From contig JAICUY010000001.1 in the NCBI GenBank assembly GCA_025935615.1, forward strand, positions 688 to 64,687: a stretch of 64,000 nucleotides of DNA. The letters run 5' to 3'. The translations under genes were made by a program, and so were the position numbers. This stretch comes from Steroidobacteraceae bacterium. Its GTDB lineage: Bacteria; Chloroflexota; Limnocylindria; QHBO01. The notes beneath the pieces were generated by a model. It searched no databases and was not told the DNA's origin. It was given only the letters and a program-made list of their open reading frames with translations. Shown here in pieces: positions 4,969 to 21,615 of this stretch. Within the stretch, counting starts at the first letter, position 1. Every line of letters starts with the position of its first letter.

Positions 4969-6009
4969 ATGACCGATCAGACCGATCCCGCACCCGCACC
5001 CCGGGTTCACGCCTTCGTCTTCCCGGGGCAGGGCTCCCAATACGTGGGCATGGGCCAGACGCTCGTCGACCAATCCCCCATCGCCGCCCAGACGCTCGAA
5101 CGAGCCGATGCGGCCCTCGGCTTCCCGCTGTCACGCCTGATTCTCGAAGGCCCGGCCGAAGAGCTCGACCGGACCGTCAATGCACAGCCGGCCATCCTCG
5201 CCACCAGCGTCGCCTTCCTCGAGGCGATGCGCGACGAGGCGCGCCAGGCGGGCATCGAGCTCGAGCCGCGCGCGGTGGCAGGCCACTCCGCCGGACAGTA
5301 CGCCGCCGCCGTGGCAGCCGACGCCCTCGACTTCGCCGATGCGCTGCGACTGGTCCGCGAACGCGGCCGGATTATGCAGGAGCGCGGCATCGAGGGCGGC
5401 ATGGGCGCGGTCATCGGCCTGACGGACGAGCAGGTGGACGAGATCGTGGAGCAGGCGCGCGAGCACGGGGAGATCGCCGTCGCCAACGACAACGCCCCGG
5501 GCCAGATCGTCCTGTCCGGCGTCATCCCGGCCCTGGTCTTCGCCCTCGAGATGAGCAAAACGGTCGGTGCGCGCCGCGCCGTGCGGCTGACGGTGAGCGT
5601 CGCCAGCCACTCCCCGCTCATGCGCCGCGCGCGGGAGGAGTTCAGCTCGATCCTCGCCCGCGTCCCGTTCCGCGAACCGAACGTGCCGATGCTCGGCAAC
5701 GTCCACGCCAGCGTGATCCACACCGCTGACGGGCTGCGCAGCGAGCTGTCCGACCACCTCGTCCACGGCGTGCAGTGGACCGACACCGTGCGGCGCATGG
5801 TCGCCGACGGCGTCACCGACTTCGTCGAGGTCGGCCCGGGCCGGGTGCTGACCGGGCTCATCAAGCGCATCAGCCCCGTGTCTGGCGCGCACGCCACCGA
5901 CGCGCCGCGTGCCGATGGTTCGCGCATCTGGCTGCCGTCGACCGGCACCGCCGAGGGCGCGCCGAATGCCGCTGACGGCGCGCCGAATCCCGCCGAGGGC
6001 ACCGCGTGA
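4969..6009 (+). CDS. fabD: Malonyl-CoA:ACP transacylase
   Basis: FVFPGQGSQYVGMG and active-site GHSAGQYAA. Has a ~40 aa Ala/Pro/Gly-rich C-terminal tail. The stop overlaps the next gene. Confidence 0.9.
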   Translation: MTDQTDPAPAPRVHAFVFPGQGSQYVGMGQTLVDQSPIAAQTLERADAALGFPLSRLILEGPAEELDRTVNAQPAILATSVAFLEAMRDEARQAGIELEPRAVAGHSAGQYAAAVAADALDFADALRLVRERGRIMQERGIEGGMGAVIGLTDEQVDEIVEQAREHGEIAVANDNAPGQIVLSGVIPALVFALEMSKTVGARRAVRLTVSVASHSPLMRRAREEFSSILARVPFREPNVPMLGNVHASVIHTADGLRSELSDHLVHGVQWTDTVRRMVADGVTDFVEVGPGRVLTGLIKRISPVSGAHATDAPRADGSRIWLPSTGTAEGAPNAADGAPNPAEGTA

Positions 6010-7286: not shown

Positions 7287-8523
7287 CGGGCGCCGCGCGG
7301 TCGTCACCGGCGTTGGCGCGGTGACGCCCATCGGCAACGACGCAGACACCTACTGGCGCAACCTGGTGGCCGGCGTCTCCGGGGTGGCGCGCATCACCGC
7401 CTACGACCCGTCCGCCGAGGAGGTCCAGATCGCGGCCGAGGTCAAGGGCTTCGAGCCACGCGACTTCATGGACTTCAAGCAGGCGCGACGCATGAGCCGG
7501 TTCAGCCAGCTGGCGGTGGCGGCGGCGGCCCAGGCCATCGCCTCAGCCGGCCTGGAGGTGACCGATGCGAACCGCGACGACATCGCGGTGGTCGTCAACA
7601 CCGGCGGCGGCGGCATCGGCGACGTCGCGCTCGGTGAGCGCATCTTCCTGGAGCAGGGCGGCAAGCGGGTCAGCCCGTTCATGGTGCCGATGCTGTCGCC
7701 GTCCATGGCGGCCTGCCAGATCAGCATCCAGAACGACCTGCGCGGGCCGGTGGTGACCGCCGTGGCCGCCTGCGCGTCGAGCGCGCAGGCCTTCGTCGAC
7801 GCGCAGCGCATGATCGAGCACGGCGACGCCGAGGTGGTGGTCGCCGGCGGAACGGAGAGCGCCATCCTGCCGGTTGCCTTCGCGGCACTGGCCAACATGG
7901 GCGCGCTGTCGAAGCGCAACGAAGATCCCGAGCGCGCCTCGCGTCCCTTCGACGCCGGGCGCGACGGGTTCGTCTTCGGCGAGGGAGCCGCCGTTCTGGT
8001 GGTCGAGGCGGCGGAGCACGCCGAACGTCGCGGTGCACCGATCCTGGCGGAGATCGCGGGGGGTGGCATGACCGCCGACGCGTACCACATCTCGGCTCCC
8101 GAGCCGTCGGGCAGTGGCGCGGCGCGCGCCATGACCCGTGCCCTGCGCGACGCAGGCATGGAGCCTGAGCAGATCACCTATGTCGCCGCCCACGGCACGT
8201 CGACGCCGCTCAACGATGCGACCGAGACGAAGGCCATCCACGCCGCCTTCGGCGCGCACGCGCCAAAGCTGGCGGTCAGCTCCAACAAGAGCATGATCGG
8301 CCACACCCTTGGCGCGGCCGGCGCCATGAGCGCGCTGGCTGCCGTCCTTGCCATCCGCGACGGCGTGATCCCGCCGACCATCAACTACGAGACGCCCGAT
8401 CCCGCCTGCGATCTCGACTATGTCGCGAACGTCGCGCGCCGCACCCCGGTCGAGGCGGCCATCGTCAACGGCTTCGGCTTCGGCGGCCAGAATGCGGTGG
8501 CCGTCTTCCGCAGGTACGCGTAG
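7276..8523 (+). CDS. fabF: Beta-ketoacyl-ACP synthase II (KAS II, KasB/FabF-like), copy 2
   Basis: Catalytic Cys in AVAACASSAQAF. His motifs AAHGTSTPLND and KSMIGHTLGAAG. Overlaps copy 1 by 11 nt. Confidence 0.9.
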   Translation: MRTDGRRAVVTGVGAVTPIGNDADTYWRNLVAGVSGVARITAYDPSAEEVQIAAEVKGFEPRDFMDFKQARRMSRFSQLAVAAAAQAIASAGLEVTDANRDDIAVVVNTGGGGIGDVALGERIFLEQGGKRVSPFMVPMLSPSMAACQISIQNDLRGPVVTAVAACASSAQAFVDAQRMIEHGDAEVVVAGGTESAILPVAFAALANMGALSKRNEDPERASRPFDAGRDGFVFGEGAAVLVVEAAEHAERRGAPILAEIAGGGMTADAYHISAPEPSGSGAARAMTRALRDAGMEPEQITYVAAHGTSTPLNDATETKAIHAAFGAHAPKLAVSSNKSMIGHTLGAAGAMSALAAVLAIRDGVIPPTINYETPDPACDLDYVANVARRTPVEAAIVNGFGFGGQNAVAVFRRYA

Positions 8524-8578
8524 CGGGCGGACCATCGGCCCGCTCGGGCCCGGGCCGCCCAGCCCGTACGCTGCCGGC

Positions 8579-9037
8579 GTGACCGAAGTGAACGGCTTGC
8601 GCCTCGCCTACCGCGGCTTCATCGGCGGCCTGGCCGCCAGCTATGCCTGGCTGGCGCTGGCGATGGTGCTGTCGGGGCTGCTCGTGGCCGACCCGCTCGC
8701 GCCGCTGCGACCGATGGCCTCCGCGCTCTCGCCGGCAGCGACGTCGGCCGAGCTCGCCTTCGTGCTCGGCCTGCTGCTGACGCAGGCGGGCGGCGGACTG
8801 GCCGGGATCTGCTTCGCGTACTTCTTCGCCCGCTTCTTCACGGTGCGCCGCACGCTGCTCGTCGCCGCCGCCTCGTACGCGGTTCTGTCGTGGGCCCTGG
8901 TGCAGGCCGCCGGCCTCGGCGTGCCACCGGCGGTGGCGCCGGCGACCGTGGTGGCCGCGCTGGGCTACGGCCTCCTGCTCGGTGTCGGGACACCGTTGCG
9001 CAGCGAGGTGCTGCGGACTCAGTCGCCGGTCACGTAG
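8579..9037 (+). CDS. Hypothetical membrane protein (about 4 TM segments)
   Basis: The hydrophobic ORF portion starts at an in-frame GTG (VTEVNGLRLAYRGFIGGLAA...). The upstream part of track ORF 8420-9037 overlaps the fabF end and looks non-coding. Confidence 0.45.
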   Translation: MTEVNGLRLAYRGFIGGLAASYAWLALAMVLSGLLVADPLAPLRPMASALSPAATSAELAFVLGLLLTQAGGGLAGICFAYFFARFFTVRRTLLVAAASYAVLSWALVQAAGLGVPPAVAPATVVAALGYGLLLGVGTPLRSEVLRTQSPVT

Positions 9038-9603
9038 AGCTGCGGCTCGTGCTGCGGCCGGTGACCCGGCAGCGTCCCGACCCAGTCGCGCAGTGCCGAC
9101 TCGGTGGTGCTGAATGCCAGCTCCCCCCACGGCAACTCGTCGGGCGCAAACGCACGCACCTCGGAGGTCTCGGCGCCCGGCGCGGCCTCGCCGCCGACCA
9201 CGGTCGCCTCGTAGATCAGCGTCACCACCCCGGCGTGCGGCCGCGAATAGACGCCGATCAGGCGTCCGACCTCGACCAGCAGCCGGGTCTCCTCCTCCGT
9301 CTCGCGCCGCGCTCCCTCGGCGGTCGACTCGCCGAGCTCGAGGAACCCGCCGGGGTAGCTCCAGCGTCCGCTTGCCGGTTCGATCGCACGCCGCGCAAGC
9401 AGCACACGACCATCGGAGACCGGCAGCGTCCCGACCACCATCCGCGGATTGCGCCAGGTGACGTGATCGTTGGGGCAGACCAGGCGCGGACGGTGATCGG
9501 CTTCGAGCAGCTTCGCCCGGACGGGCTCGCCGCAGGCGGGACAGAAGCGCGGTTCCTCCCCAAGGCTGACGGGATGGTGCGAGGTCGTGTCGCGCTCCGG
9601 CAT
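9019..9603 (-). CDS. NUDIX hydrolase with N-terminal zinc ribbon
   Basis: Nudix box GGFLELGESTAEGARRETEEETRL. N-terminal CPACG...CPNDH. Confidence 0.85.
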   Translation of the reverse strand: MPERDTTSHHPVSLGEEPRFCPACGEPVRAKLLEADHRPRLVCPNDHVTWRNPRMVVGTLPVSDGRVLLARRAIEPASGRWSYPGGFLELGESTAEGARRETEEETRLLVEVGRLIGVYSRPHAGVVTLIYEATVVGGEAAPGAETSEVRAFAPDELPWGELAFSTTESALRDWVGTLPGHRPQHEPQLYVTGD

Positions 9604-9668
9604 GTGTCCATGCTAGAGCGCCGGCCGCGGGTGGGCGGGGGCGCCGGGCGCATCGGTACAATGCGGGC

Positions 9669-9851
9669 ATGAGCCTCGAAATGACCGCGCCCGAACGCGA
9701 CCTGCTGCTCGACATCCTCACCGATGAGCTGGGACGCCTGAAGGGCGAGATCTACAAGACCGAGACCTGGGAGTACAAGGAGCAGCTCAAGGCGCGCGAG
9801 CAGACCCTCGAGTCGCTCATCGCGCGGCTCCAGGACCTCGCGACCGCCTGA
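9669..9851 (+). CDS. Small (60 aa) predicted coiled-coil protein, unknown function
   Basis: Protein-like, Lys/Glu/Leu-rich composition that is atypical for GC-artefact ORFs. Ends 10 nt before cysS. Confidence 0.5.
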   Translation: MSLEMTAPERDLLLDILTDELGRLKGEIYKTETWEYKEQLKAREQTLESLIARLQDLATA

Positions 9852-9861
9852 CGCCGCTCCC

Positions 9862-11283
9862 ATGACCGATGCGCTGCCCGAGGTGCGGCTCTACAACTCG
9901 CTGACCAGATCGGTCGAGAGGCTGCGGCCGCTCGAACCGGGACGGGTCTCGATCTACACCTGCGGCAGCACGGTGTACCGCTACGCTCATATCGGCAACC
10001 TGCGGACCTACCTGTTCGGCGATCTCCTGCATCGGACGCTCGAGTACCTCGGCTACGAGGTGCGCTACGTGAAGAACATCACCGACGTCGGGCACATGCG
10101 CGACGACACGCCGGACCAGGACCGCATGGAGCTGGCGGCCGAAACCGAGGGCCGATCGCCGTCCGAGATCGCGCAGTTCTACACCGATGCCTGGCTCACC
10201 GACGAGCGGCTGCTCAACATCCTGCCGGCCGACGTCATGCCGCGTGCCACCGAGCACGTCCCGCAGATGCTCGAGCTGACCGCGACGCTGCTCGACAAGG
10301 GGCTGGCCTACGAGGTCGACGGCACGGTCTATTACGACGTCAGCGCCTTCGCGGGCTACGGCAAGCTGTCGGGGCAGCGGCTGGAGGAGATGAAGCCCGG
10401 GCATCGTGTCGACGTCGAGTCCGACAAGCGCGATCCGGAGGACTTCGCGCTGTGGAAGGCAGCCGGCGAGCATCGGCTCATGAAATGGCCATCACCCTGG
10501 GGCGATGGCTTCCCGGGATGGCACATTGAGTGCTCGGCCATGTCGATGCACTACCTCGGCGACCGCTTCGACGTCCACACCGGCGGGATCGATCTCAAGT
10601 TCCCCCACCACGAGGATGAGATCGCGCAATCCGAGGGCGCGCTCGGCCACCAGGTCGTGAGCATCTGGATGCACGGCGAGTTCCTCACCCTGGCCGACGC
10701 CAAGATGGCGAAATCCGCCGGCAACGTCATCCGCGTCGCCGATCTGCCGTCGAAGGGCTTTGAGCCGCTCGCCTTCCGCTACCTGGCGCTGACGGCACAC
10801 TACCGCTCGAAGCTCGACTTCACCGAGAGGGCCATGCACGCCGCGGCCTCGGCGCTCCGGCGCCTGCGGCGAGCGGTCGCGGAAGGAGCATCCGAGCGGA
10901 CCGATGCGGACCTCTCCGCGGCGCCGCTGGCTGGCTATCGCGATCGTTTCGTGGCTGCCGTCTCGGAGGACCTCGGCCTGCCGGCGGCGTTGGCGGTCGC
11001 CCATGCCGTGGCGAGCGACGGCGACCTGACGCCGCCGCAGCGACGTGTGCTGCTGCTCGATTTCGATCGGGTGCTCGGATTGTCGCTGGACGCCCCGGTC
11101 GGCGGGGAGGTGGAGCTGCCGGAGGGCGCCGCCGCGCTGCTCGCCCGTCGGGCCGAGGCGCGCGAGGCACGCGATTTCGCGACCTCCGATGCGTTGCGCG
11201 ACGAGCTGGCGGCGCTCGGCGTCGAGGTCCGCGATACCCGCGACGGCCAGGTCACCACGGTCGCCGGCACCCGGTCCGGATGA
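9862..11283 (+). CDS. cysS: Cysteine--tRNA ligase
   Basis: HIGH-type motif YAHIGNLRTY, KMSKS-type motif KMAKSAGN, and WPSPWGDGFPGWHIECSAM. Confidence 0.95.
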   Translation: MTDALPEVRLYNSLTRSVERLRPLEPGRVSIYTCGSTVYRYAHIGNLRTYLFGDLLHRTLEYLGYEVRYVKNITDVGHMRDDTPDQDRMELAAETEGRSPSEIAQFYTDAWLTDERLLNILPADVMPRATEHVPQMLELTATLLDKGLAYEVDGTVYYDVSAFAGYGKLSGQRLEEMKPGHRVDVESDKRDPEDFALWKAAGEHRLMKWPSPWGDGFPGWHIECSAMSMHYLGDRFDVHTGGIDLKFPHHEDEIAQSEGALGHQVVSIWMHGEFLTLADAKMAKSAGNVIRVADLPSKGFEPLAFRYLALTAHYRSKLDFTERAMHAAASALRRLRRAVAEGASERTDADLSAAPLAGYRDRFVAAVSEDLGLPAALAVAHAVASDGDLTPPQRRVLLLDFDRVLGLSLDAPVGGEVELPEGAAALLARRAEAREARDFATSDALRDELAALGVEVRDTRDGQVTTVAGTRSG

Positions 11284-11341: not shown

Positions 11342-11371
11342 TTGACGGTGGTAGTACCGGGCTGGTACGTT
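11342..11371 (+). promoter_or_regulatory. Candidate sigma70-type promoter for the lasso precursor operon
   Basis: TTGACG, then 18 nt, then TACGTT, about 47 nt upstream of the precursor ATG. Pattern match only. Confidence 0.25.
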
Positions 11372-11417
11372 TCGCGCAAGGCGACGTGCCCTCACCATCG
11401 TCAGGAGAACTCTCATC

Positions 11418-11564
11418 ATGCAGATCGAGTACGAGGCGCCCCGGATCGAAGATCTGGGTTCCATCGCCGATCACACATTCGACAACCCGGGCAAGGGCGA
11501 CAAGTCGTCCGAGCCCATGGAGACTGACAAGTTCGGCGAGTATTCGCATCCCTTCGCCAGCTGA
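11418..11564 (+). CDS. Lasso peptide precursor (A peptide), 48 aa: MQIEYEAPRIEDLGSIADHTF / DNPGKGDKSSEPMETDKFGEYSHPFAS
   Basis: Not in the ORF track (<60 aa). AGGAGA lies 9 nt upstream of the ATG. The leader fits YxxPxLx3Gx5Tx (Y-17, P-14, I-12, G-8, T-2). Located immediately upstream of the lasso cyclase, RRE and the rest of the cluster. The translation was cross-checked against the overlapping track frames. Confidence 0.8.
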   Translation: MQIEYEAPRIEDLGSIADHTFDNPGKGDKSSEPMETDKFGEYSHPFAS

Positions 11565-11586
11565 CCAGCGCTCCGCTCTGACGACG

Positions 11587-11616
11587 AACCGGGCCTTCGG
11601 GCCCGGTTTTCGTTTC
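11587..11616 (+). terminator. Stem-loop plus U-rich tract just after the precursor gene (terminator/attenuator)
   Basis: aaccgggcc-ttcg-ggcccggtt (9 bp GC-rich stem, tetraloop) followed by ttcgtttcc. It sits between the precursor stop and the cyclase start. Confidence 0.5.
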
Positions 11617-11650
11617 CCGGCGATCAACCTCCACCCGTCACCCTGACGCC

Positions 11651-13429
11651 GTGGCTGCCATCGCGCTGGCCCATGGCCGGCAGTCAGCTCCCGCCGCGAG
11701 CGTGGTCGAGGCGATGCTCGCCGCCGCGCCGCACCGCGGCCCGACGCACCAGACCTTGATCCATGGCTCCACGGTGCTCGGAATCAGCCGCGGCGAGGAC
11801 GACGAGGACGCCTGTCTCGGGACTGACCGCGGCTTCGCGATCTGCTTCGCCGGTTCGTTCGACAACATGGCCGATCTCGGCATCGAGCTGGGGCTCGACG
11901 ACGGAAGCCGAACCGGGACCGTCGCCGACGTCCTGGGTGTCCTGGCCGAAGGCTACCGCCGCTTCCGCGAGGAGCTGCCGAACCGGATGCGCGGCGTCTA
12001 CGCCGTCGCCATCAGCGACGGCCAACGCGTGCTGTGCTTCCGCGACCACGTCGGCTACCGACCACTCTTCTATCGCTTCGACACGGACGCGCTGTACGCG
12101 GCCAGTGAAGCCAAGCAGGTCATCGCCGGTGCAGGCATCCCGCGTCAGCCGGACCTCGACGTGGTGGAGGCGATCTATTTCCGGACATATGACGACGCGA
12201 CGCCGGCGGCGCTGCGCGGCGTACGGCGGCTGCCCAAGGCGACCAGCCTGTCGCTTGCCGGGGGTCAACCGCGGCTGCAACGGTACTGGCATCCCGAACG
12301 GCTGCTCGAGACGGCCACCTTCAGCCGCGCCGAGCTGAAGGAACGATTCACGTCGCTCATGGAGCAGGCCGTCGGTCGCAGCCTCTCGCGGCCGGCCGCC
12401 ATCTCGCTCAGCGGCGGGATCGACTCTCCGGCGGTTGCCGCATTCGCCGCACCGATCCATCGCCACCGCTTCGGTCGCCCGCTGCAGGCCTTGTCCGTCG
12501 TGTACCCGCGCCATCCCTCGGTCGACGAGAGCAGCTACGTCAAGATCGTCACCGCTGCGCTCGATATCCCACTGCATGCCTACGAGCAGACGGCGAACGC
12601 CGTCGCCGATCTGCGGCGCTGGACCGCATTGGCCGATACGCCGTATCCGGCCGCGGCCCTGGCCCAATACGAGGAGGACTACCTCCGCGCCCGGGCTTTG
12701 GACGCCCGCGTCCTGCTGACCGGGGAGCACGCCGAATTCGTGATGGGCATGCAATGGCACGTCCTCGACCACCTGCTGACGCACCGCCGCTGGACCCCCG
12801 CGGCGCGGCAGCTGCGCGAGCGGCGCGGCCGCGGTGCATCGTGGATTGGCCTGACCCGCCTGGTGTTGCGCTCGCTGGCCTCGGACCGCGTGATGGCCGC
12901 GCGCAACCGCTTCGCTGCCCGACCGGCCAGCGTTCCGGCCTGGATCGACCGGAGCCGGCTCGTTCCCGACGATCCCGTCTCGGCGCGCGAACGATGGCGC
13001 GACTCGCAATTGACCGGCTTCGTCGGCCCCGGCATCTCACTCGAAGCGGAGGAGGTCTGCCAGCAGGTCTGCGGCGTGCGATCGCGCAAGCCGTGGACCG
13101 ATATCGACCTCTGGGAGTTCTTCCTCAGCCTGCCGGCCGAGATGAAGTTCCCCGACCTGCGGGCGAAGGGCCTGGTGCGCGACCTGCTCCGCGGACGCGT
13201 GCCGGATGAAATCCTCGACCGGCGCGACAAGACGGTCTTCGATGCAGCCGCGATGGCCGACGTCGACTACGCCGCGCTGCGCGGCCTGCTGATCGATTCG
13301 CCGCACCGGATCAGCGGCGTCGATTATCGGCGACTGGCCGCGGCGCTCGACGCCGAGCGACTGACCCCGATCGAGTACCGCTGGGCGCGGAACCTCGCCA
13401 ACGTCCACGCATTCCTGTCACAGTGGTGA
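11651..13429 (+). CDS. Lasso peptide macrolactam synthetase (C protein; asparagine synthetase B-like)
   Basis: 592 aa. PP-loop-type LSGGIDSPAVAAFA. AsnB-like architecture. Sits between the precursor and the PqqD-like gene. Confidence 0.85.
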   Translation: MAAIALAHGRQSAPAASVVEAMLAAAPHRGPTHQTLIHGSTVLGISRGEDDEDACLGTDRGFAICFAGSFDNMADLGIELGLDDGSRTGTVADVLGVLAEGYRRFREELPNRMRGVYAVAISDGQRVLCFRDHVGYRPLFYRFDTDALYAASEAKQVIAGAGIPRQPDLDVVEAIYFRTYDDATPAALRGVRRLPKATSLSLAGGQPRLQRYWHPERLLETATFSRAELKERFTSLMEQAVGRSLSRPAAISLSGGIDSPAVAAFAAPIHRHRFGRPLQALSVVYPRHPSVDESSYVKIVTAALDIPLHAYEQTANAVADLRRWTALADTPYPAAALAQYEEDYLRARALDARVLLTGEHAEFVMGMQWHVLDHLLTHRRWTPAARQLRERRGRGASWIGLTRLVLRSLASDRVMAARNRFAARPASVPAWIDRSRLVPDDPVSARERWRDSQLTGFVGPGISLEAEEVCQQVCGVRSRKPWTDIDLWEFFLSLPAEMKFPDLRAKGLVRDLLRGRVPDEILDRRDKTVFDAAAMADVDYAALRGLLIDSPHRISGVDYRRLAAALDAERLTPIEYRWARNLANVHAFLSQW

Positions 13430-13722
13430 ACGTGGAGATCACGGTCGAATCGGTCGTCCAGCGCAACCCGCAGGTCGTCGGCCGCGCCCTGGCGCCGGGC
13501 GAGGGGGGCGTCCTGCTCCACCTCTCGACCGCGGCCTACCATCGGGTGAACCCGGTGGGACTGGCGATCTGGGACCTCCTCGAGCATCCGCGCCGCGTCG
13601 ACGACGTCATCACCGCGCTGCGCGAAACCGTGGCGAATGCGCCGGCTGCGCTCGACCGCGACGTGCTCACCTTCCTGCAGTCGGTGGTGGATCGTGACCT
13701 CGTGCTCGTGGAAGAGGCCTAA
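13423..13722 (+). CDS. PqqD-like RiPP recognition element (lasso B1 protein)
   Basis: 99 aa. PqqD-family pattern: GGVLLHLSTAAYHRVNPVGLAIWDLLEHPRRVDDVITAL...DVLTFLQSVVDRDLV. Overlaps the cyclase stop by 7 nt. Confidence 0.8.
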   Translation: MVNVEITVESVVQRNPQVVGRALAPGEGGVLLHLSTAAYHRVNPVGLAIWDLLEHPRRVDDVITALRETVANAPAALDRDVLTFLQSVVDRDLVLVEEA

Positions 13723-15038
13723 GCTCGCGAGCGGCCATCAAAGCGCGCTACGCCGATGACGTGCCCGTCCAGCGCGATTCCCTCGACTGAGCGGTAGCCT
13801 GACTCGACCATCTCGTTCGCAAGCGCGTCCCACTGGTCCGGGAGCATCTGAAGCACGACCGCAGCGCCGGGCCGCAGGAACGGCCGGGCGTCGCGAATGA
13901 GCTGCCGCTGGAGGCCGAGGCCATCAGCGCCCCTTCCCTCGACCGTTGCGGCAGGCACCGATCCGAGCGCCACCCGGCGGGTCGAGGGAACGTACGGGAG
14001 GTTCGCGATCAGGCAGTCGACCGGTCCGATGCCCGACGGATCCATTCCGGCCAGCAACGCTCCACGCTCGAAGCGCACCGCCAGGCCGAGTCGGGCTGCG
14101 TTCCTGCTCGCGGCGCGCACGGCTCGACCGGATCGATCGGTGCCGACCACCGTTGCCTGCGGCAGGCGCGCCGCAATCCCGAGCGCGATGGCACCGCAGC
14201 CGGTTCCGATTTCGAGCAGCAGCGGCCGCTCGACCGCCTCGATGTGCCGCAGCGCGACATCGATGACCACGTCGGCCGACGCGGTCGGCACGAACACGCC
14301 GGGCGGCACGATCACCTCGATTCCGGCCAGTCGGACGCGAACGCCGAGATCGCCGTACGCCGGCGCGCCGGCCAGCAGGCGCCGCAGCCTCGCCGGACGA
14401 GCCCACCGCTGGAACCCCGAGGCGATCGTCCATGCCGGGCCCAGCGCTCCACCGAAGATCGGACCTGGTCCCGGCCGATCCGGGCCGCCGAGAGCGCGTC
14501 GCGCGCGATCCAGCGCCGCATGCACGCCGCTCTCGACGGCAATGCGCCGGGCCGCGCGCCAGTCGAGCGTGCCCGCCATCACACGCAGCCGCTCCCAATC
14601 CGCCTCGTGTCCCCGTCCTGGACGGCACGACTGCACGGCCAGATGCACCGCGAGCGCTTCGGGATCGGGCGTGCGCAGTGGACCGTCTCCGCCAGACGCC
14701 AACAAGCGCCCGGCGAGCGCGTCGAGGCTCGCCGGCGGAAATGGGGCGGCCGGCAGGCCCCAGAGCAGATCGAGGTACTGGCCCGTATCGGTCCAGTAGG
14801 TTCGGCCAGGCTGGAGCCGGCCAAGGCCGCGCCGGACCCACGAGTAGCGCCAATCGAGCAACTCGACGGCGGTCGTCGCCGCGGCGCGGCTGTCGCGCGC
14901 GACCAGCACCTGCATCGGTCGATAGCCCGCCTGCGCAGTCGCCGGCAGTGCCGTGCCGGTCAGCACAACGCCCGACAGCCCGCCCGCTCCGAATCCTTCG
15001 GCGATGGAGTCCTGGTCGAGCCCGCGCATCGCCGGCAC
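13719..15038 (-). CDS. Fusion protein: N-terminal degenerate nucleotidyltransferase-like (PF14907-like) domain plus C-terminal HemK/PrmC-like class I SAM methyltransferase
   Basis: C-terminal half has VFVPTASADVVIDVAL, SAM motif LLEIGTGCGAIALGIA, VVGTDRS and motif IV ANLPYVP (an NPPY variant). The N-terminal half aligns by eye to the 18462-19586 protein (YLDLLWGL vs PLDLHWSL; ALAVHLAVQ vs RLIHLAVHG; LDWRAARRIA vs VDWSAVAERS). GTG start lies 4 nt after the B2 stop. Confidence 0.7.
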   Translation of the reverse strand: MPAMRGLDQDSIAEGFGAGGLSGVVLTGTALPATAQAGYRPMQVLVARDSRAAATTAVELLDWRYSWVRRGLGRLQPGRTYWTDTGQYLDLLWGLPAAPFPPASLDALAGRLLASGGDGPLRTPDPEALAVHLAVQSCRPGRGHEADWERLRVMAGTLDWRAARRIAVESGVHAALDRARRALGGPDRPGPGPIFGGALGPAWTIASGFQRWARPARLRRLLAGAPAYGDLGVRVRLAGIEVIVPPGVFVPTASADVVIDVALRHIEAVERPLLLEIGTGCGAIALGIAARLPQATVVGTDRSGRAVRAASRNAARLGLAVRFERGALLAGMDPSGIGPVDCLIANLPYVPSTRRVALGSVPAATVEGRGADGLGLQRQLIRDARPFLRPGAAVVLQMLPDQWDALANEMVESGYRSVEGIALDGHVIGVARFDGRSRA

Positions 15039-15042
15039 GGGG

Positions 15043-15510
15043 CTATGCCGGACGGGGGTAGCGGGTCATCTCCTCGTAGCCGGCGCCACCAGGCGGCGGT
15101 CCGATGTCGCGGCCGTCGAGGAGGACCCAGGCGTGTGCATCGGGCGATGCGGCGCGGTGATGGAGACCAATGACCAGCTCGGCGGCGTCACCCTGCGCCC
15201 GCAACATCCGGTAGAGCACCAGCGCCCGCACCAGGCAACGCGGCTGCCAGGGACCGATGCGCAGGCCGCGGGTGACGGCGCGGCTCAGCAGCGCCAACGG
15301 GACGCGCTGGCGACTGGTGCCCGGCGGCGCCGATGCGACCGCCTGCAACGGCTGACGGCGCAACGCAACAGCCACGCGTGCGGCGCTGACCCAGACCCTC
15401 ACCAGCAGCCGCGCCTGCTCGCCACGCGAGGCAGGCTTCATGGCCGGCCCGGTCGGCGCGGGGGTCGATGACATGCGCGGATAGTGCCGCACGCGGCTCG
15501 CGCCCGCCAC
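15043..15510 (-). CDS. Lasso leader peptidase (B2 protein; transglutaminase-like Cys protease)
   Basis: CLVRALVLYRMLRAQG...ELVIGL...AHAWVLLDGRDIG matches the B2 Cys...His core pattern. The start may be 15510 or the internal Met at 15474. Confidence 0.8.
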   Translation of the reverse strand: MAGASRVRHYPRMSSTPAPTGPAMKPASRGEQARLLVRVWVSAARVAVALRRQPLQAVASAPPGTSRQRVPLALLSRAVTRGLRIGPWQPRCLVRALVLYRMLRAQGDAAELVIGLHHRAASPDAHAWVLLDGRDIGPPPGGAGYEEMTRYPRPA

Positions 15511-15519
15511 GGGCGCGGG

Positions 15520-16446
15520 TCAGCGCACGTTCGCGACCAGTCGTTCGAGCGCATCGATCACCTCCTGCATGCGGGCCATGCTGAGCGGCCGGTGGAGGTC
15601 GTAGGCCGGAACGCGAGACGTCAGGTCGACCACGCGCGCGAAGCAGGAACGGCGCGAGTCGTCCGTCGGAAGACGGAAGCTGAGCGCGAAGAGGTCCCGT
15701 GTCGCGCCGGCGGCATCCAGCGGGCGGATGCCGAGCTGATCGGCCCGCCGCAGCAGGACGATGGCGCGCAGCGGGACCGGCCGTCCGTCGCCCCGTCGCG
15801 CCTGGTCGAAGATTATCGCCTGCCGGCCAGCGTCCGACGAGCCTTCCGCATGACGTGCGCCCGGCAGCCGCAGAAGCTGCGCAACGTCCGGCCGCAGGCG
15901 AACCGCCGCCGGTCCGGGGTACAGGGCCGGCTCGGCACCAAGTGCGCAGCGCACCGTGTCTTCGGCCAGCAGCCGGTGGCCGACGGCGGCCAGCCCCGCA
16001 GCCAGGGTCGTCTTGCCGTGCATGCTCGGTCCTGCCAGCAGCAGCGCGCTGCCGCCGATCTCGACCGCCGAGGCGTGGACCGACAGGTCGCCGGCATGCA
16101 GCGCGCACAACGCGGCCGGGATGCCAAGCAGGCGCAACTCGCGTCGCAACGGCTCGGCGCCGCCTTCGACCCGGATCCGCGCGTCATCGGGTGCCACTTC
16201 GTAGCGACCGACGTCGCTTGCCCAGAAGACGTACCTGGTGCCCTGCCGGTGCAGCGTGGCGTGGAACGGGTTGTCCGGCCGCGCATGCCACACCGCGATG
16301 GGCTCGCCGCTGGGCGGCGGCAGATTCGCCTCCTCGACGAGGAGCGGCGTTTCGCCGGAATCGGAGCGCAGCGTCTGGAACGGCAGCGACGATCGCAGCC
16401 CGAAGCCGACGGCGCTGCCGACGACGTCGCGAGAGGGACCTGGCAT
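15520..16446 (-). CDS. HPr kinase/phosphorylase-like protein kinase (lasso precursor Ser kinase type)
   Basis: HASAVEIGGSALLLAGPSMHGKTTLAAGL (HprK C-terminal domain with P-loop). The ATG lies 5 nt after the permease stop. The N-terminal 256 aa of track ORF 15520-17217 are an out-of-frame overlap of the permease gene. Confidence 0.72.
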   Translation of the reverse strand: MPGPSRDVVGSAVGFGLRSSLPFQTLRSDSGETPLLVEEANLPPPSGEPIAVWHARPDNPFHATLHRQGTRYVFWASDVGRYEVAPDDARIRVEGGAEPLRRELRLLGIPAALCALHAGDLSVHASAVEIGGSALLLAGPSMHGKTTLAAGLAAVGHRLLAEDTVRCALGAEPALYPGPAAVRLRPDVAQLLRLPGARHAEGSSDAGRQAIIFDQARRGDGRPVPLRAIVLLRRADQLGIRPLDAAGATRDLFALSFRLPTDDSRRSCFARVVDLTSRVPAYDLHRPLSMARMQEVIDALERLVANVR

Positions 16447-16451
16447 GCCGC

Positions 16452-17285
16452 TCAGTACTGCGACAGGGAGCCGTCGGTCTGGGCGAAGCGGATGGCCCGG
16501 CCGCAGGCCCACAGCCCCAGCGGCACCAGCAGCACGCCGAGCGCAGCGAGCGCGGCGAAGTGCGGCCACAGGGTGGCAAATCCTTCCCCACTCAGCGTCG
16601 AACGCCGCATCAGCTCGAGGGCGTGCGTCAGCGGCAGAAGCTGCGCGAGCGCCTGCAGCCAGACGGGGAGCACGCTGACGGGGTAGAAGACCCCGGCCAA
16701 CAGCACCGACGCCATGCCGAGCAGCAGGCTGATGGGGTTGCCCTGCTTGACGACGATCACCACGCTTGCTGCGACGAGACCCATCCCGTTGAAGGCGACC
16801 ACCGACAGCGCCAGCGCCGCCAGCGCGACCGGCACGTTGGCGCTGCCGAGGTCGAGCCCGAGCGCCAGGCCGACCACGGCGTAGACGAGCAGCGTGACGA
16901 CTGCCATGGCGTGCGCCCAGAGCGAGGCACCGACCAGCAGGACCCATAACCGATTCGGGCTGAGCAGCATGAGCTCCAGCGTTCCCATCAGCTGACCTTC
17001 GCGGACCCGGGAGCTGATGCCCGACAGGCCCAGCGCCAGCAGGTTGGACAGCGCAATGCCGACAAGCGCGAAGGCAAAGTAGTTGCCGCCGTAGGCACTC
17101 AGGTTGCCACCGAGCTGGCCGCCGAAGGCGCGGCCCAGGAAATAGACGCTCAGCACGCTGGCCAGCGACCCGCCGGTCGACAGCAGGAAGCCCATTCGAT
17201 AGCTGGTGGCCGTCCACATGTCGCGAATGAATGTCGCCCCGAGCACGCGCGGCCAGCCGTCCATCACCCGCTCAAGCATCGGCAT
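16452..17285 (-). CDS. ABC-2 type transporter permease
   Basis: 277 aa with about 6 TM segments. Overlaps the ATPase gene end by 14 nt. Confidence 0.8.
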   Translation of the reverse strand: MPMLERVMDGWPRVLGATFIRDMWTATSYRMGFLLSTGGSLASVLSVYFLGRAFGGQLGGNLSAYGGNYFAFALVGIALSNLLALGLSGISSRVREGQLMGTLELMLLSPNRLWVLLVGASLWAHAMAVVTLLVYAVVGLALGLDLGSANVPVALAALALSVVAFNGMGLVAASVVIVVKQGNPISLLLGMASVLLAGVFYPVSVLPVWLQALAQLLPLTHALELMRRSTLSGEGFATLWPHFAALAALGVLLVPLGLWACGRAIRFAQTDGSLSQY

Positions 17286-18267
17286 GCACCGCGCGATAGA
17301 CGTCCTCGAGGGTCGGCTCTCGCGTCGTACAGCCCTCGATCCGCAGTCCGCGATCGAGCAGCAGCTGCAGCACGGCGCTCAGGGAGCCGCGGCCACGATC
17401 CAGGCGCACGCTGATGCGCGAGCCGACGGTCGCTGCCGTCACGTCGGCCGCTTCGACGCCCGGCAGATCACACAACGCCGCCCGCACGGGCTCGGTCCGA
17501 CCGTCGACCGCGAGCTCGACGAAGCTCGAGAGTCCCATCCGCGCGCTCAGCTCACTCATACTGCCGACCTCGATCATCGCGCCGCGCCGCATGATCGCGA
17601 TCCGATCGCAGATGGCCTCGGCTTCGGAGAGCGCGTGCGTCGCCAGGAAGACGGTGTATCCGCGCTTCCCGACGATGTGGCTGGTGATGTAGGTGCGCAG
17701 CTCGTCCGCCGCGATCGGATCGAGGGCGCGAGTCGGCTCATCGAGAAACAGGATCTGCGGATCGGTCAGCATGCCGCGCGCGATTCCGAACTTCTGGCGG
17801 GTGCCGGTCGAATAGCTGTCGAAGCGCCGGTCGGCATACTCGCTGACGCCCAGCGTATCCAGCAGCTCGTCGATGCGCCGATCGATCAGGCGGCGCGGCA
17901 CGTGGTACAGCGTCGCGAAGTACCACAGGTTCTGGCGTCCGGTGAGGCGCCAGTAGAAGCTGCGTTCGTCACCACTCACCAGCCCGATCAGCTGCCGGAC
18001 GCGATGCGGCTCGTCCACCACGTCGTGGCCGCCCACCAGCGCACGCCCCGAGGTCGGAAGCAGGGTCGTCGTCAGCATCCGGATCAGCGTCGTCTTTCCC
18101 GCACCGTTCTCGCCGAGCAGACCGAACAGCTCGCCGCGCCGCACACTCAGGTCGACGCCGTCGACGGCGGCGTCGCGTGCCGGCTGACGACCGTAGCGCA
18201 GCAGGTCCCGATAGCCGCTCACACGGCGGAACCGCTTGGTCAGATGCTCCGTTTCGATCGCGTTCAC
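17272..18267 (-). CDS. ABC transporter ATP-binding protein (DrrA/ABC-2 type)
   Basis: Walker A GENGAGKTT, signature YSTGTRQKF, Walker B ILFLDEPT. A GTG at 18267 is preceded by GGAG. The track ORF extends to 18369. Confidence 0.88.
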   Translation of the reverse strand: MNAIETEHLTKRFRRVSGYRDLLRYGRQPARDAAVDGVDLSVRRGELFGLLGENGAGKTTLIRMLTTTLLPTSGRALVGGHDVVDEPHRVRQLIGLVSGDERSFYWRLTGRQNLWYFATLYHVPRRLIDRRIDELLDTLGVSEYADRRFDSYSTGTRQKFGIARGMLTDPQILFLDEPTRALDPIAADELRTYITSHIVGKRGYTVFLATHALSEAEAICDRIAIMRRGAMIEVGSMSELSARMGLSSFVELAVDGRTEPVRAALCDLPGVEAADVTAATVGSRISVRLDRGRGSLSAVLQLLLDRGLRIEGCTTREPTLEDVYRAVHADA

Positions 18268-18461
18268 ACGACGCTCCGCTGGTCCTCGGCTCCCTCCGTT
18301 CGCCGGCACATGATGCCGGGCGGCGCGAAGGGGTGGCAGTATGCATCGCCTAGCGGTCGCGCGCCGCATGACGTTCAGTCGCCGGGAGGCCCACTCTGCC
18401 GTTCCTTCGTCGGTTTTCCGGTCGGCGCCTTCCGGGCACCCGATCCGAGCGCGACGCAGCG

Positions 18462-19586
18462 GTGCGCCTACTGTGCCTCTTGGTGGCGGATGAGGCGCCC
18501 GCGCCGGACACGGTCATGGCGCTGCTCCGCCAGACGACCGTGCCCGCTGTCCTGGCGCTCGCGCGCTACCACGCCGTGGCCGGACTCGCCTACGAGCGCC
18601 TCGATCCAGTGCCGGTGCCTGAGCCGTTGCTTCGCGGCCTGGCAGATCTTCGCGAGCAGGCGGTCCGCCGTCACCTCCTGGTGACCTGGGCGCTCGCCCG
18701 GCTGCAGCCACTCCTCGACGCGTCCTCCGTGGCGTGGTCGGTCGTCAAAGGGCCGGTGCTCGCAGAGCTGTACGCGGCGCCGGGGCGGCGCAGCTATCGC
18801 GATCTCGATCTGCTCGTCGATCCTGCGGGCTTTCCCGACGTCCTCGCACGTCTCCAGGAGGCGGGCGGCGAGCTGCTCGATACCAACTGGCGCGTCCTTC
18901 GTCGTGAGCTGCGTGGCGAGCTCCACCTCGTCCTGTCCGGTGGCGTGCCACTCGACCTGCACTGGTCGCTGATCAACATGTATCGGGCCGATACGGCTAT
19001 CGACACGTCCGAGATCCTGGGACGGCGGGTGGCGGTCGAGCTCGGCGGCGTGCCCGCCTGGAGCCTCGAGCCCAGCGACCGACTCATCCATCTGGCGGTT
19101 CACGGAGCGCTGTCAGGCGCCGACCGGCTGGTGTGGATCAAGGATGTGGACCTCGCCGCTCGTGACGCGGCGGTCGATTGGAGCGCGGTCGCCGAGCGAA
19201 GCCGCCGTTGGAAGGTGGCGCGCCCGGTGGGGCTGATGCTGTACCGCGCCGCACGCACCCTCGAGACGCCGCTGCCCCGTGGTCTCGCGGACAGCCTGCT
19301 GGGGCGCCGCTACCGCCGTGTCGCCGACCTCATCGACCGATACTCGCCCTGGCAGCAGGCGCTCGGCAGGGTGACGACGCCGAGCCTGCTGCTGGCGCGC
19401 AGCAGCGGCCAGGGCCCGGTCGGGACGATCGGCTGGCTCGCGCGACGGACGGTTCGCAATCTCGACCCGCGCGAGCCGGCCGCCTCGTCGGCGTTCACGC
19501 CAGCCGGCAGCGACGACGACCGCCGCGCCTACCTAGCGGCGGTCGCCGACGTGGCCAATCCTGCTCGGCGCTCGGTCAGGGAGTGA
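18462..19586 (+). CDS. Nucleotidyltransferase-family protein (uncharacterised NTP_transf_5 / PF14907 type)
   Basis: YRDLDLLVDPAGF (DxD) and LDLHWSL pattern. GTG start. Divergent from the ABC/kinase operon. Confidence 0.68.
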   Translation: MRLLCLLVADEAPAPDTVMALLRQTTVPAVLALARYHAVAGLAYERLDPVPVPEPLLRGLADLREQAVRRHLLVTWALARLQPLLDASSVAWSVVKGPVLAELYAAPGRRSYRDLDLLVDPAGFPDVLARLQEAGGELLDTNWRVLRRELRGELHLVLSGGVPLDLHWSLINMYRADTAIDTSEILGRRVAVELGGVPAWSLEPSDRLIHLAVHGALSGADRLVWIKDVDLAARDAAVDWSAVAERSRRWKVARPVGLMLYRAARTLETPLPRGLADSLLGRRYRRVADLIDRYSPWQQALGRVTTPSLLLARSSGQGPVGTIGWLARRTVRNLDPREPAASSAFTPAGSDDDRRAYLAAVADVANPARRSVRE

Positions 19587-21615
19587 CGGCCAGCTGATCC
19601 CAGGTCGCGGGAAAGACCGGCGAATTCAGACCCTGCGAGGTGGCGATGATGCCCGCGGCCAGCGGCCGGCCGTCGAGCCACGAGGCCGGGACCGTGCGCC
19701 GGGCGTCGTTGCCGCCGAAGTCACGCCAGTGATCGCCACCGTCGAGCGAGTACTTCGGCACATACGTGTTCGTCGCCGTCTTGACCGCGATGCGCAGATC
19801 GACACACGCCGCACCCGCGATGTCCGGGTCGGCGCGGCGGCTGAGCCCACGGCCCGTCCCCCTGACCTCGCGGACGTCATGGACCGACGAGGTATCACCC
19901 TTCACGTCGACCACGGCCTTGATGTAGTCGTCCTGCTGGCCGAGCCCGAAGAACACGCCCACCGCCTGGTAGGGCACGTCCGGATACGGTGAGCACACGC
20001 GACCCCGCACGAAGAAGTTCGTGCCATTCGGGACGAAGGCGCGCTGGAAGGCATAGCGCTGCCGATTCTCATGATCGATGGCATCGCCCTCCGGGACCGC
20101 ATTGATGGTGAGCCTGCCACCGCTGACATCGACGTTGGCGGCGTCGTACAGCGACGTGTACGGCCCATTGGCGTTGTACATCACGCCGTCGAAGCCGAGG
20201 TCCTGGAGCAGCGTGGCGTCGCTGACCGGTCCGTCGAAGTCGAGCGTGAACGAAGCCGCGGCTCCGCTGCCATTGGCCGGATCGAGTGCGAAGGCATCGC
20301 AACCGTCGCTGATGCCATCGCCATCGTGATCGCCGGCCATCGCCACAGTGACCGATACGGTGGCGGTGTCCGTCCCGCTGCGCCCGTCACCCACACGGTA
20401 GGTCAGCGTATCCGGGCCGGTGTACGAAGCGTCAGGACGGTAGCTGATGGCCCGGCCGTTGCGGACGATCGACGCCGTTCCATGACCCGGCTGGTTGGTG
20501 ATGCTCGTCATGCTCAGGTGATCGCCATCCGGATCGCTATCGTTGCGCAGCACCCAGAACAGGCGACTGCAGTCCTCGGCCACGGACATGGTGTCCGCCG
20601 CGGCAATCGGCGCGTGGTCACCGAGCGCCCGCGCCACCGCCGACGAAACCTGATCGGTCCCGCCGATGACGATGATCTTTGTCGGCGTCAGCCGCAGGAT
20701 TTCGCGCCGGGTGCTGGGCGGGATCGAGTCATGCTTGACGAGCAGCACCGGGCCCTGGCCCTTGGTGGCAGTCCCCGCGCCCATCGCATACGGCAGCGCC
20801 GTGCCGCTCACCACCCAGACGGTGGAGACCCGCGAAGTGAAGTGACGCCGACTGGTCTTGGCAACCGTCGAGTATTGCGTTGGGCCGGACTCGCGCCGCA
20901 CGGTGGCGATGGTGGCCAGCCGATCCGCGACGGCCGCCGAGATGACATCCGTGCCGCCGGCGATGATGATGCGATCGGGGTTGAGCCGGCGAAGCTCCGT
21001 AGCGGTCGACGCCGGTAGGCTGCCCGCGCGAGAGAACAGGATCGGTCCGCGCCCGTGGGCCGCGGGTGCGGCTCCCAGTGCCCAGGCGGCCTTGTTCGGG
21101 TTGGCGATGTACGCCATCTTGGCGCCCGCGTTGAATCGCGCCTGACTGACGTCAACCGCCGTGCCGTAGCGCGAATGGCCAGTGCGCCGCACGACCGGCG
21201 CGATCGCCCGCAGAGAGCGCCGGACGGCGGTTGACACCTGTCCGGCCGGACCGACGATCACGATGCGGTCGGGCCGCAGGCGCTCGAGCTCGTTGCGCGT
21301 CACGCTCGGAACGTGATCTCGCTTCACCAGCAGGACCGGTCCATGCTTGACCGCGGCAGCCGCCGCGACGAGTCCCTCGGCGGGACGATCACCGTTGACC
21401 ACGTAGACGACCGATACTCCGGCCGCGAAATGCAGCCGACTGACCCGCGCCGCGGTCGAGTACCGATTCGACCCGGCCTCGCGGATGTAGGTCGACGCGG
21501 CAACCGGCGCCGCGGATCGAAATGCGGGTGCGATCGAGGCTCCGGCGATAAGAAGGCCGGACATCAGACCAACGAAAACGGGCCGCACTGAACGGCCAAT
21601 GAGCAGGCTGGGCAC
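19576..21615 (-). CDS. Secreted multidomain surface protein: signal peptide, 3-4 cell-wall-binding-2 (CWB2)-like repeats, cadherin/Ig-like domain, Asp-rich calcium-type motif, C-terminal lectin/LamG-like domain
   Basis: Repeats of the type SGxxRYxTAxxVSxxxF...VVNG...VLL...P..T..EL.RL.P.RIxIxGG...VS. Also VLRNDSDPDGDHL and DHDGDGISDGCD. Confidence 0.7.
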   Translation of the reverse strand: MPSLLIGRSVRPVFVGLMSGLLIAGASIAPAFRSAAPVAASTYIREAGSNRYSTAARVSRLHFAAGVSVVYVVNGDRPAEGLVAAAAAVKHGPVLLVKRDHVPSVTRNELERLRPDRIVIVGPAGQVSTAVRRSLRAIAPVVRRTGHSRYGTAVDVSQARFNAGAKMAYIANPNKAAWALGAAPAAHGRGPILFSRAGSLPASTATELRRLNPDRIIIAGGTDVISAAVADRLATIATVRRESGPTQYSTVAKTSRRHFTSRVSTVWVVSGTALPYAMGAGTATKGQGPVLLVKHDSIPPSTRREILRLTPTKIIVIGGTDQVSSAVARALGDHAPIAAADTMSVAEDCSRLFWVLRNDSDPDGDHLSMTSITNQPGHGTASIVRNGRAISYRPDASYTGPDTLTYRVGDGRSGTDTATVSVTVAMAGDHDGDGISDGCDAFALDPANGSGAAASFTLDFDGPVSDATLLQDLGFDGVMYNANGPYTSLYDAANVDVSGGRLTINAVPEGDAIDHENRQRYAFQRAFVPNGTNFFVRGRVCSPYPDVPYQAVGVFFGLGQQDDYIKAVVDVKGDTSSVHDVREVRGTGRGLSRRADPDIAGAACVDLRIAVKTATNTYVPKYSLDGGDHWRDFGGNDARRTVPASWLDGRPLAAGIIATSQGLNSPVFPATWDQLAVTP

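Follow-up and report, generated by a model that had tools for sequence, protein, structure and literature searches.

A probable kinase- and PF14907-type lasso peptide gene cluster from an uncultured Limnocylindria bacterium with a HemK-like methyltransferase fused to an inactive nucleotidyltransferase-fold domain

As stable scaffolds, lasso peptides attract pharmaceutical interest, and new tailoring enzymes widen the chemistry available for their engineering. Kinase-type lasso clusters have been described from Firmicutes and Proteobacteria, with nucleotidyltransferase (NT) or sulfotransferase genes as extras (PMC8498205, PMC9266682, PMC7533575). In the paeninodin (pade) and ThcoK/SyanK clusters an HPr-kinase homologue accompanies a precursor with a C-terminal Ser, and kinases of this type act on the linear precursor (PMC8498205, PMC9266682). 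The pseudomycoidin (psm) cluster of Bacillus pseudomycoides DSM 12442 comprises a split B1/B2 pair, a cyclase (C), an HPr-kinase-like enzyme (K), a Ser-ending precursor and an “uncharacterised nucleotidyltransferase” (N), PsmN, whose activity is DxD-dependent and whose PF14907 membership is taken from the papers’ description; PsmN is needed for the addition of hexose(s) to the pseudomycoidin phosphoserine, by a mechanism described as unresolved (PMC6993621). Here, a locus of this basic, familiar type is described from the window, a 64,000-nucleotide stretch of contig JAICUY010000001.1. The locus is probably a functional split-B (B1/B2), kinase/PF14907-type lasso cluster whose host is a member of Candidatus Limnocylindria (Chloroflexota), and a biosynthetic pathway is proposed for it. 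Its distinctive features are a fusion of a catalytically dead NTase-fold (nucleotidyltransferase-fold) domain with a HemK-like methyltransferase (MT), the Chloroflexota host and, possibly, a non-canonical leader/core junction. Kinase-type lasso biosynthesis is thereby extended to Limnocylindria, an abundant soil lineage that is uncultured and from which hardly any natural products have been characterised.

All nine open reading frames (ORFs) listed in a sequence-only reading of the same DNA were recovered at matching coordinates (Table 1), and Pfam and NCBIfam matches confirmed its gene calls, its family assignments and its view that the cluster is complete. Profile searches matched the proposed family for every listed gene, with Hpr_kinase_C below its gathering score. 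The locus encodes the components that define a split-B system, namely an ATP PP-loop cyclase, a PqqD-like B1 and a transglutaminase-like B2. Cyclase C is 52-62% identical to the cyclases of related loci that gave a full-length match, and scored 146 bits against the NCBIfam lasso-cyclase model (cut-off of 525), an “exception”-type model built for cyanobacteria; B2 scored 53 bits against lasso_biosyn_B2 (NF033537; cut-off of 33). Catalytic motifs are intact throughout and comprise SGGIDS254 in C, His124, GPSMHGKT139 and GHRLLAED in the kinase, DLD114 in the NT, and GTGCG and NLPY346 in the MT. Kinase family matches were weak but specific (Hpr_kinase_C, E 7e-6, over the P-loop region; HprK_rel_A, E 4.5e-10; ScmC), and the pattern His...GK[T/S]...[L/V]L[S/A/T/C]ED is kept in the window kinase and, without exception, among its counterparts in related loci (14 kinase copies, 13 loci). 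The window contains one precursor gene and one HemK-like domain.

The analogy drawn earlier with paeninodin (kinase) and pseudomycoidin (kinase plus NT) holds at the level of families and motifs, which is also the level, rather than pairwise sequence, at which the window enzymes are likened to PsmK and PsmN. Several differences are apparent. The psm cluster belongs to Bacillota, whereas the window belongs to Chloroflexota; psm has a single ABC-type transporter gene, psmD, while the window has separate DrrA- and DrrB-like genes; the gene order differs, with the window NT divergently transcribed; and psm has no methyltransferase where the window carries the MT fusion. The pade, ThcoK and SyanK clusters, found in Bacillota and Proteobacteria, likewise lack an MT, and pade lacks an NT. 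A search of the literature for kinase-type lasso clusters from Chloroflexi returned generic mining papers only.

The actinobacterial-type genome assumed in the sequence-only reading is instead that of an uncultured high-GC member of the Chloroflexota, class Limnocylindria. This assignment follows from the CysS encoded beside the cluster, whose best named relatives (76-80% identical) are mostly Candidatus Limnocylindria/Chloroflexi proteins from metagenome-assembled genomes (MAGs), from the closest relatives of the cluster itself, which lie in Chloroflexi/Chloroflexia MAGs, and from the cysS-lasso synteny common to the window and a Ca. Limnocylindria contig, L001 (L numbers denote related loci). 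Metagenome contig L168 has an architecture identical to that of the window, with 48-83% protein identity, and about ten contigs carry rearranged versions of the cluster. The lasso, kinase and MT genes occur in rearranged form in L001, L002, L003, L005, L007, L019 and L087, of which L001 has two MT paralogues and no NT, and L087, a short contig, holds only MT, B1, C and A. A further rearrangement, with the MT upstream of A, is found in L170, and the arrangement in L027, from a Gaiellaceae MAG, is collinear. Across relatives with 48-83% identity, purifying selection seems to act on the family. The locus is a new member or variant of a recurrent, uncharacterised family found in uncultured soil bacteria, and is not singular.

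Other relatives, with a homologous precursor, lack the MT fusion and have different tailoring genes. L083 encodes a GT2-PF14907 fusion, a 2-oxoglutarate oxygenase and GT2 proteins, and L167 has a PMT-like gene together with a class I methyltransferase of another kind. In L086, genes for GHMP kinase, SIS, HAD and NTP_transferase proteins are followed by a GT2 gene (7791-10627), a set that resembles a GDP-heptose pathway and hints that lasso peptides of this branch are heptosylated. L085 (5570-6511) and L169 (4861-5799) have a second HprK/ScmC-like kinase gene after B1, in the slot held by the MT fusion in the window; such kinase pairs could act at two phosphorylation sites or serve dedicated polyphosphorylation. 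Since relatives swap the MT for other genes, the kinase/PF14907 pair emerges as a constant core to which extra tailoring is added in modular fashion.

The MT fusion (13719-15038, minus strand) comprises 439 residues, of which only residues ~235-419 are matched by MTS, Methyltransf_25 and RF_mod_PrmC (E 5e-29). The best sequence matches of this domain in the PDB are HemK/PrmC (E ~1e-21), and a Foldseek search with a confident AlphaFold model of the full-length protein (predicted local distance difference test, pLDDT, 87.8; predicted template modelling score, pTM, 0.85) returned HemK first, followed by KMT9/N6AMT1 and PrmA. As the methyltransferase domain dominated this search, the N-terminal domain was modelled alone (pLDDT 85). 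Foldseek then returned only NTase-fold proteins, all of them weak matches (best E 4e-3), including MenT toxins, viral poly(A) polymerases, JHP933 and ANT(2''); the ANT(2'') entries 4xje and 5cfs are the structures that Zyubko et al. found for PsmN (PMC6993621). The N-terminal half of the window fusion itself gave no Pfam match, while PF14907 was weakly matched by 15 of the 24 members of the fusion family. Alignment of the N-terminal domain with the cluster NTs by hhalign gave a probability of 93% (E 3e-7) over 171 columns, and BLASTP against the NT of the window itself gave an E value of 0.02. Because the structural matches are all weak, the fold assignment rests mainly on profile comparison. 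In the profile alignment the NT motif YRDLDLLV is aligned with YRPMQVLV in the fusion; thus the DxD is lost and the NTase half is taken to be catalytically dead. Both domains of the earlier “NTase-like/methyltransferase fusion” are therefore present, with the first of them inactive.

At 90% identity the fusion family falls into 24 clusters, which share 41-50% identity with the window protein. Among 1.84 billion representatives, a profile search gave 243 proteins below E 1e-30, several dozen of them matching over the full length; an MT-profile scan of metagenome contigs returned almost only genuine PrmC genes and a single family member, that of L087.

The MT domain is HemK-like in fold but is not PrmC. 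It shares with HemK/PrmC and HemK2/KMT9 (N6AMT1) the class I S-adenosylmethionine (SAM) fold and a motif at the NPPY position. A housekeeping PrmC, or another bystander gene adjoining the cluster, could be suspected, as RF_mod_PrmC is the best NCBIfam match, JGI labels homologues as release-factor glutamine methyltransferases, and some copies of the fusion are orphans located away from lasso clusters. This explanation is very improbable. The fusion scored 101 bits against the PrmC equivalog TIGR03534, whose cut-off is 199; it lacks PrmC_N (PF17827), which true PrmC matches carry and which is replaced here by the dead PF14907-like domain paralogous to the cluster NT; and NPPY is changed to ANLP[Y/F] in all 24 members, with NLPY in the window. 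In addition, the gene is found inside the operon, with B2 and B1 on either side, in the window and in 10 further independent loci, while in L027 and L170 it takes two other positions beside lasso genes. Such placement in operons for a RiPP (a peptide synthesized ribosomally and modified after translation) is a further difference from HemK/PrmC.

Methyltransferases known from lasso pathways, namely the StspM/LasF-type C-terminal carboxyl O-methyltransferases and the PIMT homologues of cellulonodin-2 and lihuanodin, share SAM-dependent lasso tailoring with the fusion but belong to unrelated families and direct their chemistry to oxygen (methyl ester, aspartimide). PCMT matched the window fusion with an E value of 0.17 and the fusion family only marginally (11 of 24 members, best E 1.4e-3), and Methyltransf_2 gave no match to the window protein. 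The NPPY motif marks amino- and amide-N methyltransferases; the target of HemK is a Gln amide and that of KMT9 a Lys amine. By analogy, an NPPY-type, HemK-like enzyme most plausibly methylates nitrogen. The methyl group (+14 Da) expected in the sequence-only reading is thus plausible, with the qualification that the enzyme class points to N-methylation and is unrelated to the known lasso O-methyltransferases.

The literature searched contained no report of lasso peptide N-methylation and no description of a HemK-type enzyme in a lasso cluster, in agreement with the earlier statement that no such cluster was known; its coverage is incomplete, and novelty does not follow from such an absence. 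Among the lasso post-translational modifications listed in a 2026 review are phosphorylation, acetylation, acylation, aspartimide formation, prenylation and glycosylation, and a term search of this review found no methyltransferase beyond the known O-methyltransferases (PMC13352647).

Lys26 of the precursor is present in 9 of 10 loci with the MT fusion and in 1 of 7 loci without it (Fisher p = 0.004, kinship ignored), the sole exception among the former being L019, which has Glu26 and an apparently frameshifted MT. As kinship was ignored, and as the association favours a core starting at D22 over the preferred core starting at S30 (see below), it is regarded as a lead only. An O-methyltransferase role, in which the fusion would form a Ser-phosphate methyl ester or methylate the C-terminal carboxylate beside the site recognised by its PF14907-like domain, is rather unlikely. 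Such a role would agree with the paralogy of the dead domain to the family of PsmN, which is required for phosphoserine decoration, so that the fusion may dock at the C-terminus; with the fact that the only characterised lasso methylations (StspM, PIMT homologues) are O-methylations; and with the Ser-ending precursors of most MT-fusion loci. The invariant NLP[Y/F], however, corresponds to the N-methyltransferase motif NPPY, and the closest solved structures, HemK, KMT9 and PrmA, are all N-methyltransferases.

PF14907 modules have been found joined to a second lasso-tailoring or processing domain elsewhere, being reported as fusions to B2 in Firmicutes (PMC8498205) and occurring here as the GT2 fusion of L083. 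The window module differs from these in having lost its DxD and in its partner, a methyltransferase. Taken together, the MT fusion, the GT2 fusion and the B2 fusions suggest that PF14907 is a portable docking or partner module. Tentatively, and with considerable doubt, the dead-NTase/HemK-like fusion could be a new class of RiPP tailoring enzyme that methylates side-chain nitrogens (Lys epsilon-N or Asn/Gln amide-N) of a phosphorylated lasso peptide, with the PF14907 fold as a portable peptide- or phosphopeptide-docking module fused in turn to protease, glycosyltransferase and methyltransferase. If true, a docking-domain/methyltransferase fusion would provide both a compact engineering tool and a clue to the function of PF14907. 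The active PF14907 enzyme of the window is considered part of the cluster because its orthologues sit among lasso genes in relatives, between B2 and MT in L002, L003, L005 and L007, with a partial copy beside the MT in L019. The window cluster has no glycosyltransferase, whereas relatives have GT2 or GT4 genes and the GDP-heptose-like gene set.

Further observations on these fusions concern individual loci. In L083 the GT2-PF14907 fusion (7785-9899; 704 residues) lies immediately upstream of the precursor gene. The two paralogous MT fusions of L001 (2333-3649 and 4122-5450) flank B2, with no active PF14907 gene, and may represent two methylation events or a heterodimer. The MT fusion of L019 (936-2087; Chloroflexi bacterium RBG_16_72_14) aligns as four pieces in different frames and is either a pseudogene or an assembly error. 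The orphan fusions of L004 (1328-2686), L008 (5172-6474) and L010 (9902-11254) have no lasso genes in the surrounding DNA examined, their neighbours being, respectively, an M24 peptidase and GH127; LUD-domain proteins and a cellulase; and an MFS-cNMP-binding transporter.

Precursor A (MQIEYEAPRIEDLGSIADHTFDNPGKGDKSSEPMETDKFGEYSHPFAS) ends in ...PFAS, and its match to the lasso leader model NF033521 is weak (E 0.009). Database searches gave 78 homologues, and the precursor family was analysed over 85 homologous precursors, all from uncultured bacteria. The family is strongly conserved, with the consensus ..Y[E/Q]xPx[I/V]x[D/E]xGSIA[D/E][H/N]T[F/Y]-[D/N/Q][N/T]PGxG[D/T]KS-x(4-5)-TDK[F/Y/W]GE[Y/F]SHP-x(1-5). 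Two candidate cores are present in the window precursor, S30-S48 (ring S1-D8) and D22-S48 (ring D1-D7), with computed neutral monoisotopic lasso masses of 2126.889 Da (19 residues) and 2938.272 Da, respectively. A leader of 29 residues followed by the core SSEPMETDKFGEYSHPFAS, with an S1-D8 ring, is preferred from the sequence comparison and has about an even chance of being correct. The preference is given because only a cut after Lys29 leaves an Asp acceptor in all 85 precursors: core position 1 is then Ser30 (83 Ser, 2 Ala), and the invariant Asp of TDK falls at core position 8 in 41 precursors and at position 9 in 44. A cut after Pro24, giving a core from Gly25 (computed lasso mass 2612.149 Da), was rejected, with an acidic residue at positions 7-9 in only 43 of the 85.

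The D22 core, by comparison, would result if B2 cut at the canonical site after Phe21, with Thr20 at position -2, to give DNPGKGDKSSEPMETDKFGEYSHPFAS (27 residues). The spacing from the Tyr of the Y(W/N)xxP motif to Thr20 is exactly 15 in 85/85 precursors, and a spacing of 15 is that of the canonical Thr(-2) site in actinobacterial split-B systems such as lariatin, fusilassin and citrulassin. The product, a 7-residue D1-D7 ring with a 20-residue loop and tail, is possible though doubtful for this subgroup of precursors; it would place the variable-length segment 31-36 in the loop, where variation is usually tolerated, and would keep Lys26 and Asn23 within the mature peptide, open to the methyltransferase, in keeping with the co-occurrence of Lys26 and the MT fusion. 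Positions 22 and 23 always include at least one amide residue (DN, NN, QT or NT, never DT; n = 85), which also accords with this cut. Asp28 is present in 73 of the 85 precursors, and only these have an acidic residue at core positions 7-9 of a core cut after residue 21; the remaining 12, the “QTPGKGTKS” group, have Thr at 28 and lack such an acceptor, although L002, L003, L005, L007 and L019, with complete clusters, are among them. Asp, Asn or Gln would moreover be unusual as core residue 1, and an N-terminal Gln is prone to pyroglutamate formation. With the preferred S30 core, the leader/core junction of the family may be non-canonical and lie eight residues downstream of the canonical-looking Thr(-2). 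How B2 and C select their sites can be studied in a natural setting here, as the conserved Thr(-2) conflicts with the universal Asp acceptor.

We infer every step of the following pathway from what was observed, namely the genes present and their families, the intact motifs, the conserved synteny, the conserved precursor family and the host taxon. The PqqD-like B1 would bind the 48-residue precursor by way of its YxxP leader, and the HPr-kinase-like enzyme would phosphorylate a Ser of the linear precursor, Ser48 being the likeliest by analogy with PadeK, ThcoK, SyanK and PsmK. B2 would remove the leader, and the Asn-synthase-like cyclase would close the isopeptide ring between the N-terminus and Asp, preferably in the S30-S48 core and alternatively in the D22-S48 core. 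The PF14907 enzyme may then decorate the phosphate, as PsmN does with hexose. The fusion would dock through its dead PF14907-like domain, allowing the HemK-like domain to N-methylate a side chain, for which the candidates are a Lys epsilon-amine (Lys26 being suggested by co-occurrence) or the Asn23 amide. Finally, the DrrAB-type ABC transporter would export the product, provide immunity, or both.

Several points weigh against this pathway. All family members come from uncultured organisms and are known from their genes alone. The Hpr_kinase_C score of the kinase is 26 bits against a gathering score of 33, and its motif reads His-Lys-Glu-Asp, whereas the published lasso-kinase motif, like that of the psm kinase, is His-Lys-Asp-Asp (PMC9266682). 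The precursors end in -S in 57 of the 85, in -SP in 25, in -SA in 2 and in -VG in 1, and the -SP endings set the family apart from the pade, ThcoK and SyanK precursors. The earlier expectation of C-terminal Ser phosphorylation fits the window precursor but, as a C-terminal Ser is not universal in the family, the kinase target is less certain than the paeninodin analogy implies. Since a Ser at or beside the C-terminus is near-universal, the strict “free C-terminal Ser” rule of Firmicutes may not hold here; the kinase may act elsewhere, with the invariant E[Y/F]SHP Ser as one alternative target. PF14907 chemistry is unsettled even for PsmN. The S30 core puts Asp at position -2 in the window, as in 73 precursors, with Thr in the other 12, and implies differing ring sizes among close precursors; a single caulosegnin machinery makes rings of two sizes. 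The association of Lys26 with the MT is confounded by relatedness and presupposes that the mature peptide retains residue 26, at odds with the preferred S30 core. MT fusions also exist outside lasso clusters, in two Gemmatimonadota MAGs and one Chloroflexia MAG (L004, L008, L010).

A silent or decayed cluster, or a branched-cyclic (unthreaded) product instead of a true lasso, is improbable. In the absence of K and N, pseudomycoidin is produced in unthreaded form (PMC6993621), and no sigma-70 consensus promoter was found by a scan that covers one promoter type, from which Chloroflexota promoters may differ. On the other hand, all ORFs are intact with their catalytic motifs, and the family is apparently under purifying selection.

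Transcription and translation signals within the cluster are included in Table 1. The hairpin downstream of A, missed by a simple terminator scan and found by folding the region, has a U-rich tail, and an equivalent hairpin follows A in 10/10 related loci, with differing stem sequences. It is probably an attenuator or mRNA-stabilising element that sets the ratio of precursor to enzymes. The start of B1 overlaps the end of C by 7 nt, and the ABC ATPase gene overlaps the permease start by 14 nt.

Table 1. Positions of the cluster features within the window, with the basis of each assignment.
Feature	Position	Strand	Basis
Shine-Dalgarno-like AGGAG, 10 nt 5' of precursor ATG	11403..11407	+	read from sequence
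Precursor peptide A, 48 aa; leader Y5xxP8 and T20, C-terminal Ser48	11418..11564	+	
GC-rich stem-loop between A and C, UUCG tetraloop then UUUUCGUUU	11580..11614	+	fold energy -40.9 kcal/mol, z -3.1
Lasso cyclase C, Asn-synthase-like, 592 aa; PP-loop SGGIDS at residue 254	11651..13429	+	Asn_synthase (PF00733) E 2e-28; GATase_7
B1, PqqD-like RiPP recognition element, 99 aa	13423..13722	+	PqqD (PF05402) E 3.5e-13
MT fusion, C-terminal domain, residues ~231-439; HemK/PrmC-like SAM methyltransferase, GTGCG, ANLP[Y/F], without PrmC_N	13719..14348	-	
MT fusion, N-terminal domain, residues ~1-230; NTase fold, PF14907-like, DxD lost	14349..15038	-	
B2 leader peptidase, transglutaminase-like Cys protease, 155 aa	15043..15510	-	Transglut_core3 (PF13471) E 7.5e-16
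HPr-kinase-like/ScmC-like peptide kinase, 308 aa; His124, GPSMHGKT, GHRLLAED	15520..16446	-	Pfam, NCBIfam, PDB HPrK alignment
ABC-2 permease, DrrB-like	16452..17285	-	Pfam, NCBIfam
ABC ATPase, DrrA-like, 264 bits	17272..18369	-	Pfam, NCBIfam
Divergent intergenic region between ABC operon and NT, 92 bp; presumed promoters in both directions	18370..18461	.	coordinates
PF14907 nucleotidyltransferase, 374 aa; intact DLD114	18462..19586	+	PF14907 E 9e-44, 150 bits (cut-off 31)

The genes that flank the cluster are housekeeping-like, with cysS, FabD and two beta-ketoacyl synthase (KAS) genes upstream and those for a CWB2/Ig surface protein and an aldo-keto reductase downstream; the cluster is therefore taken to extend over ~11.4-19.6 kb. 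The surface protein (19576-21615, minus strand; 679 residues), with three CWB2 cell-wall-binding repeats and Big_9 and cadherin-like domains, overlaps the NT gene by 11 nt at its end and is placed outside the cluster because it is absent beside the cluster in relatives. The FabD-like acyltransferase gene is followed by the two tandem beta-ketoacyl synthase genes in a type II fatty acid synthase (FAS II)-type block (4969-8523, plus strand), upstream of which lie genes for a carotenoid-synthesis-family protein and an M20 peptidase. Elsewhere in the window, a cyclic di-GMP (c-di-GMP)-I riboswitch (Rfam RF01051, 57 bits, E 1.6e-8) at 32933-33007 (minus strand) is located directly upstream of the gene for a 450-residue GH16-domain protein (31569-32921, minus strand), with GT4 (33131-34279) and GT2 (30500-31525) genes nearby, and this region may be a c-di-GMP-regulated exopolysaccharide or cell-wall locus.

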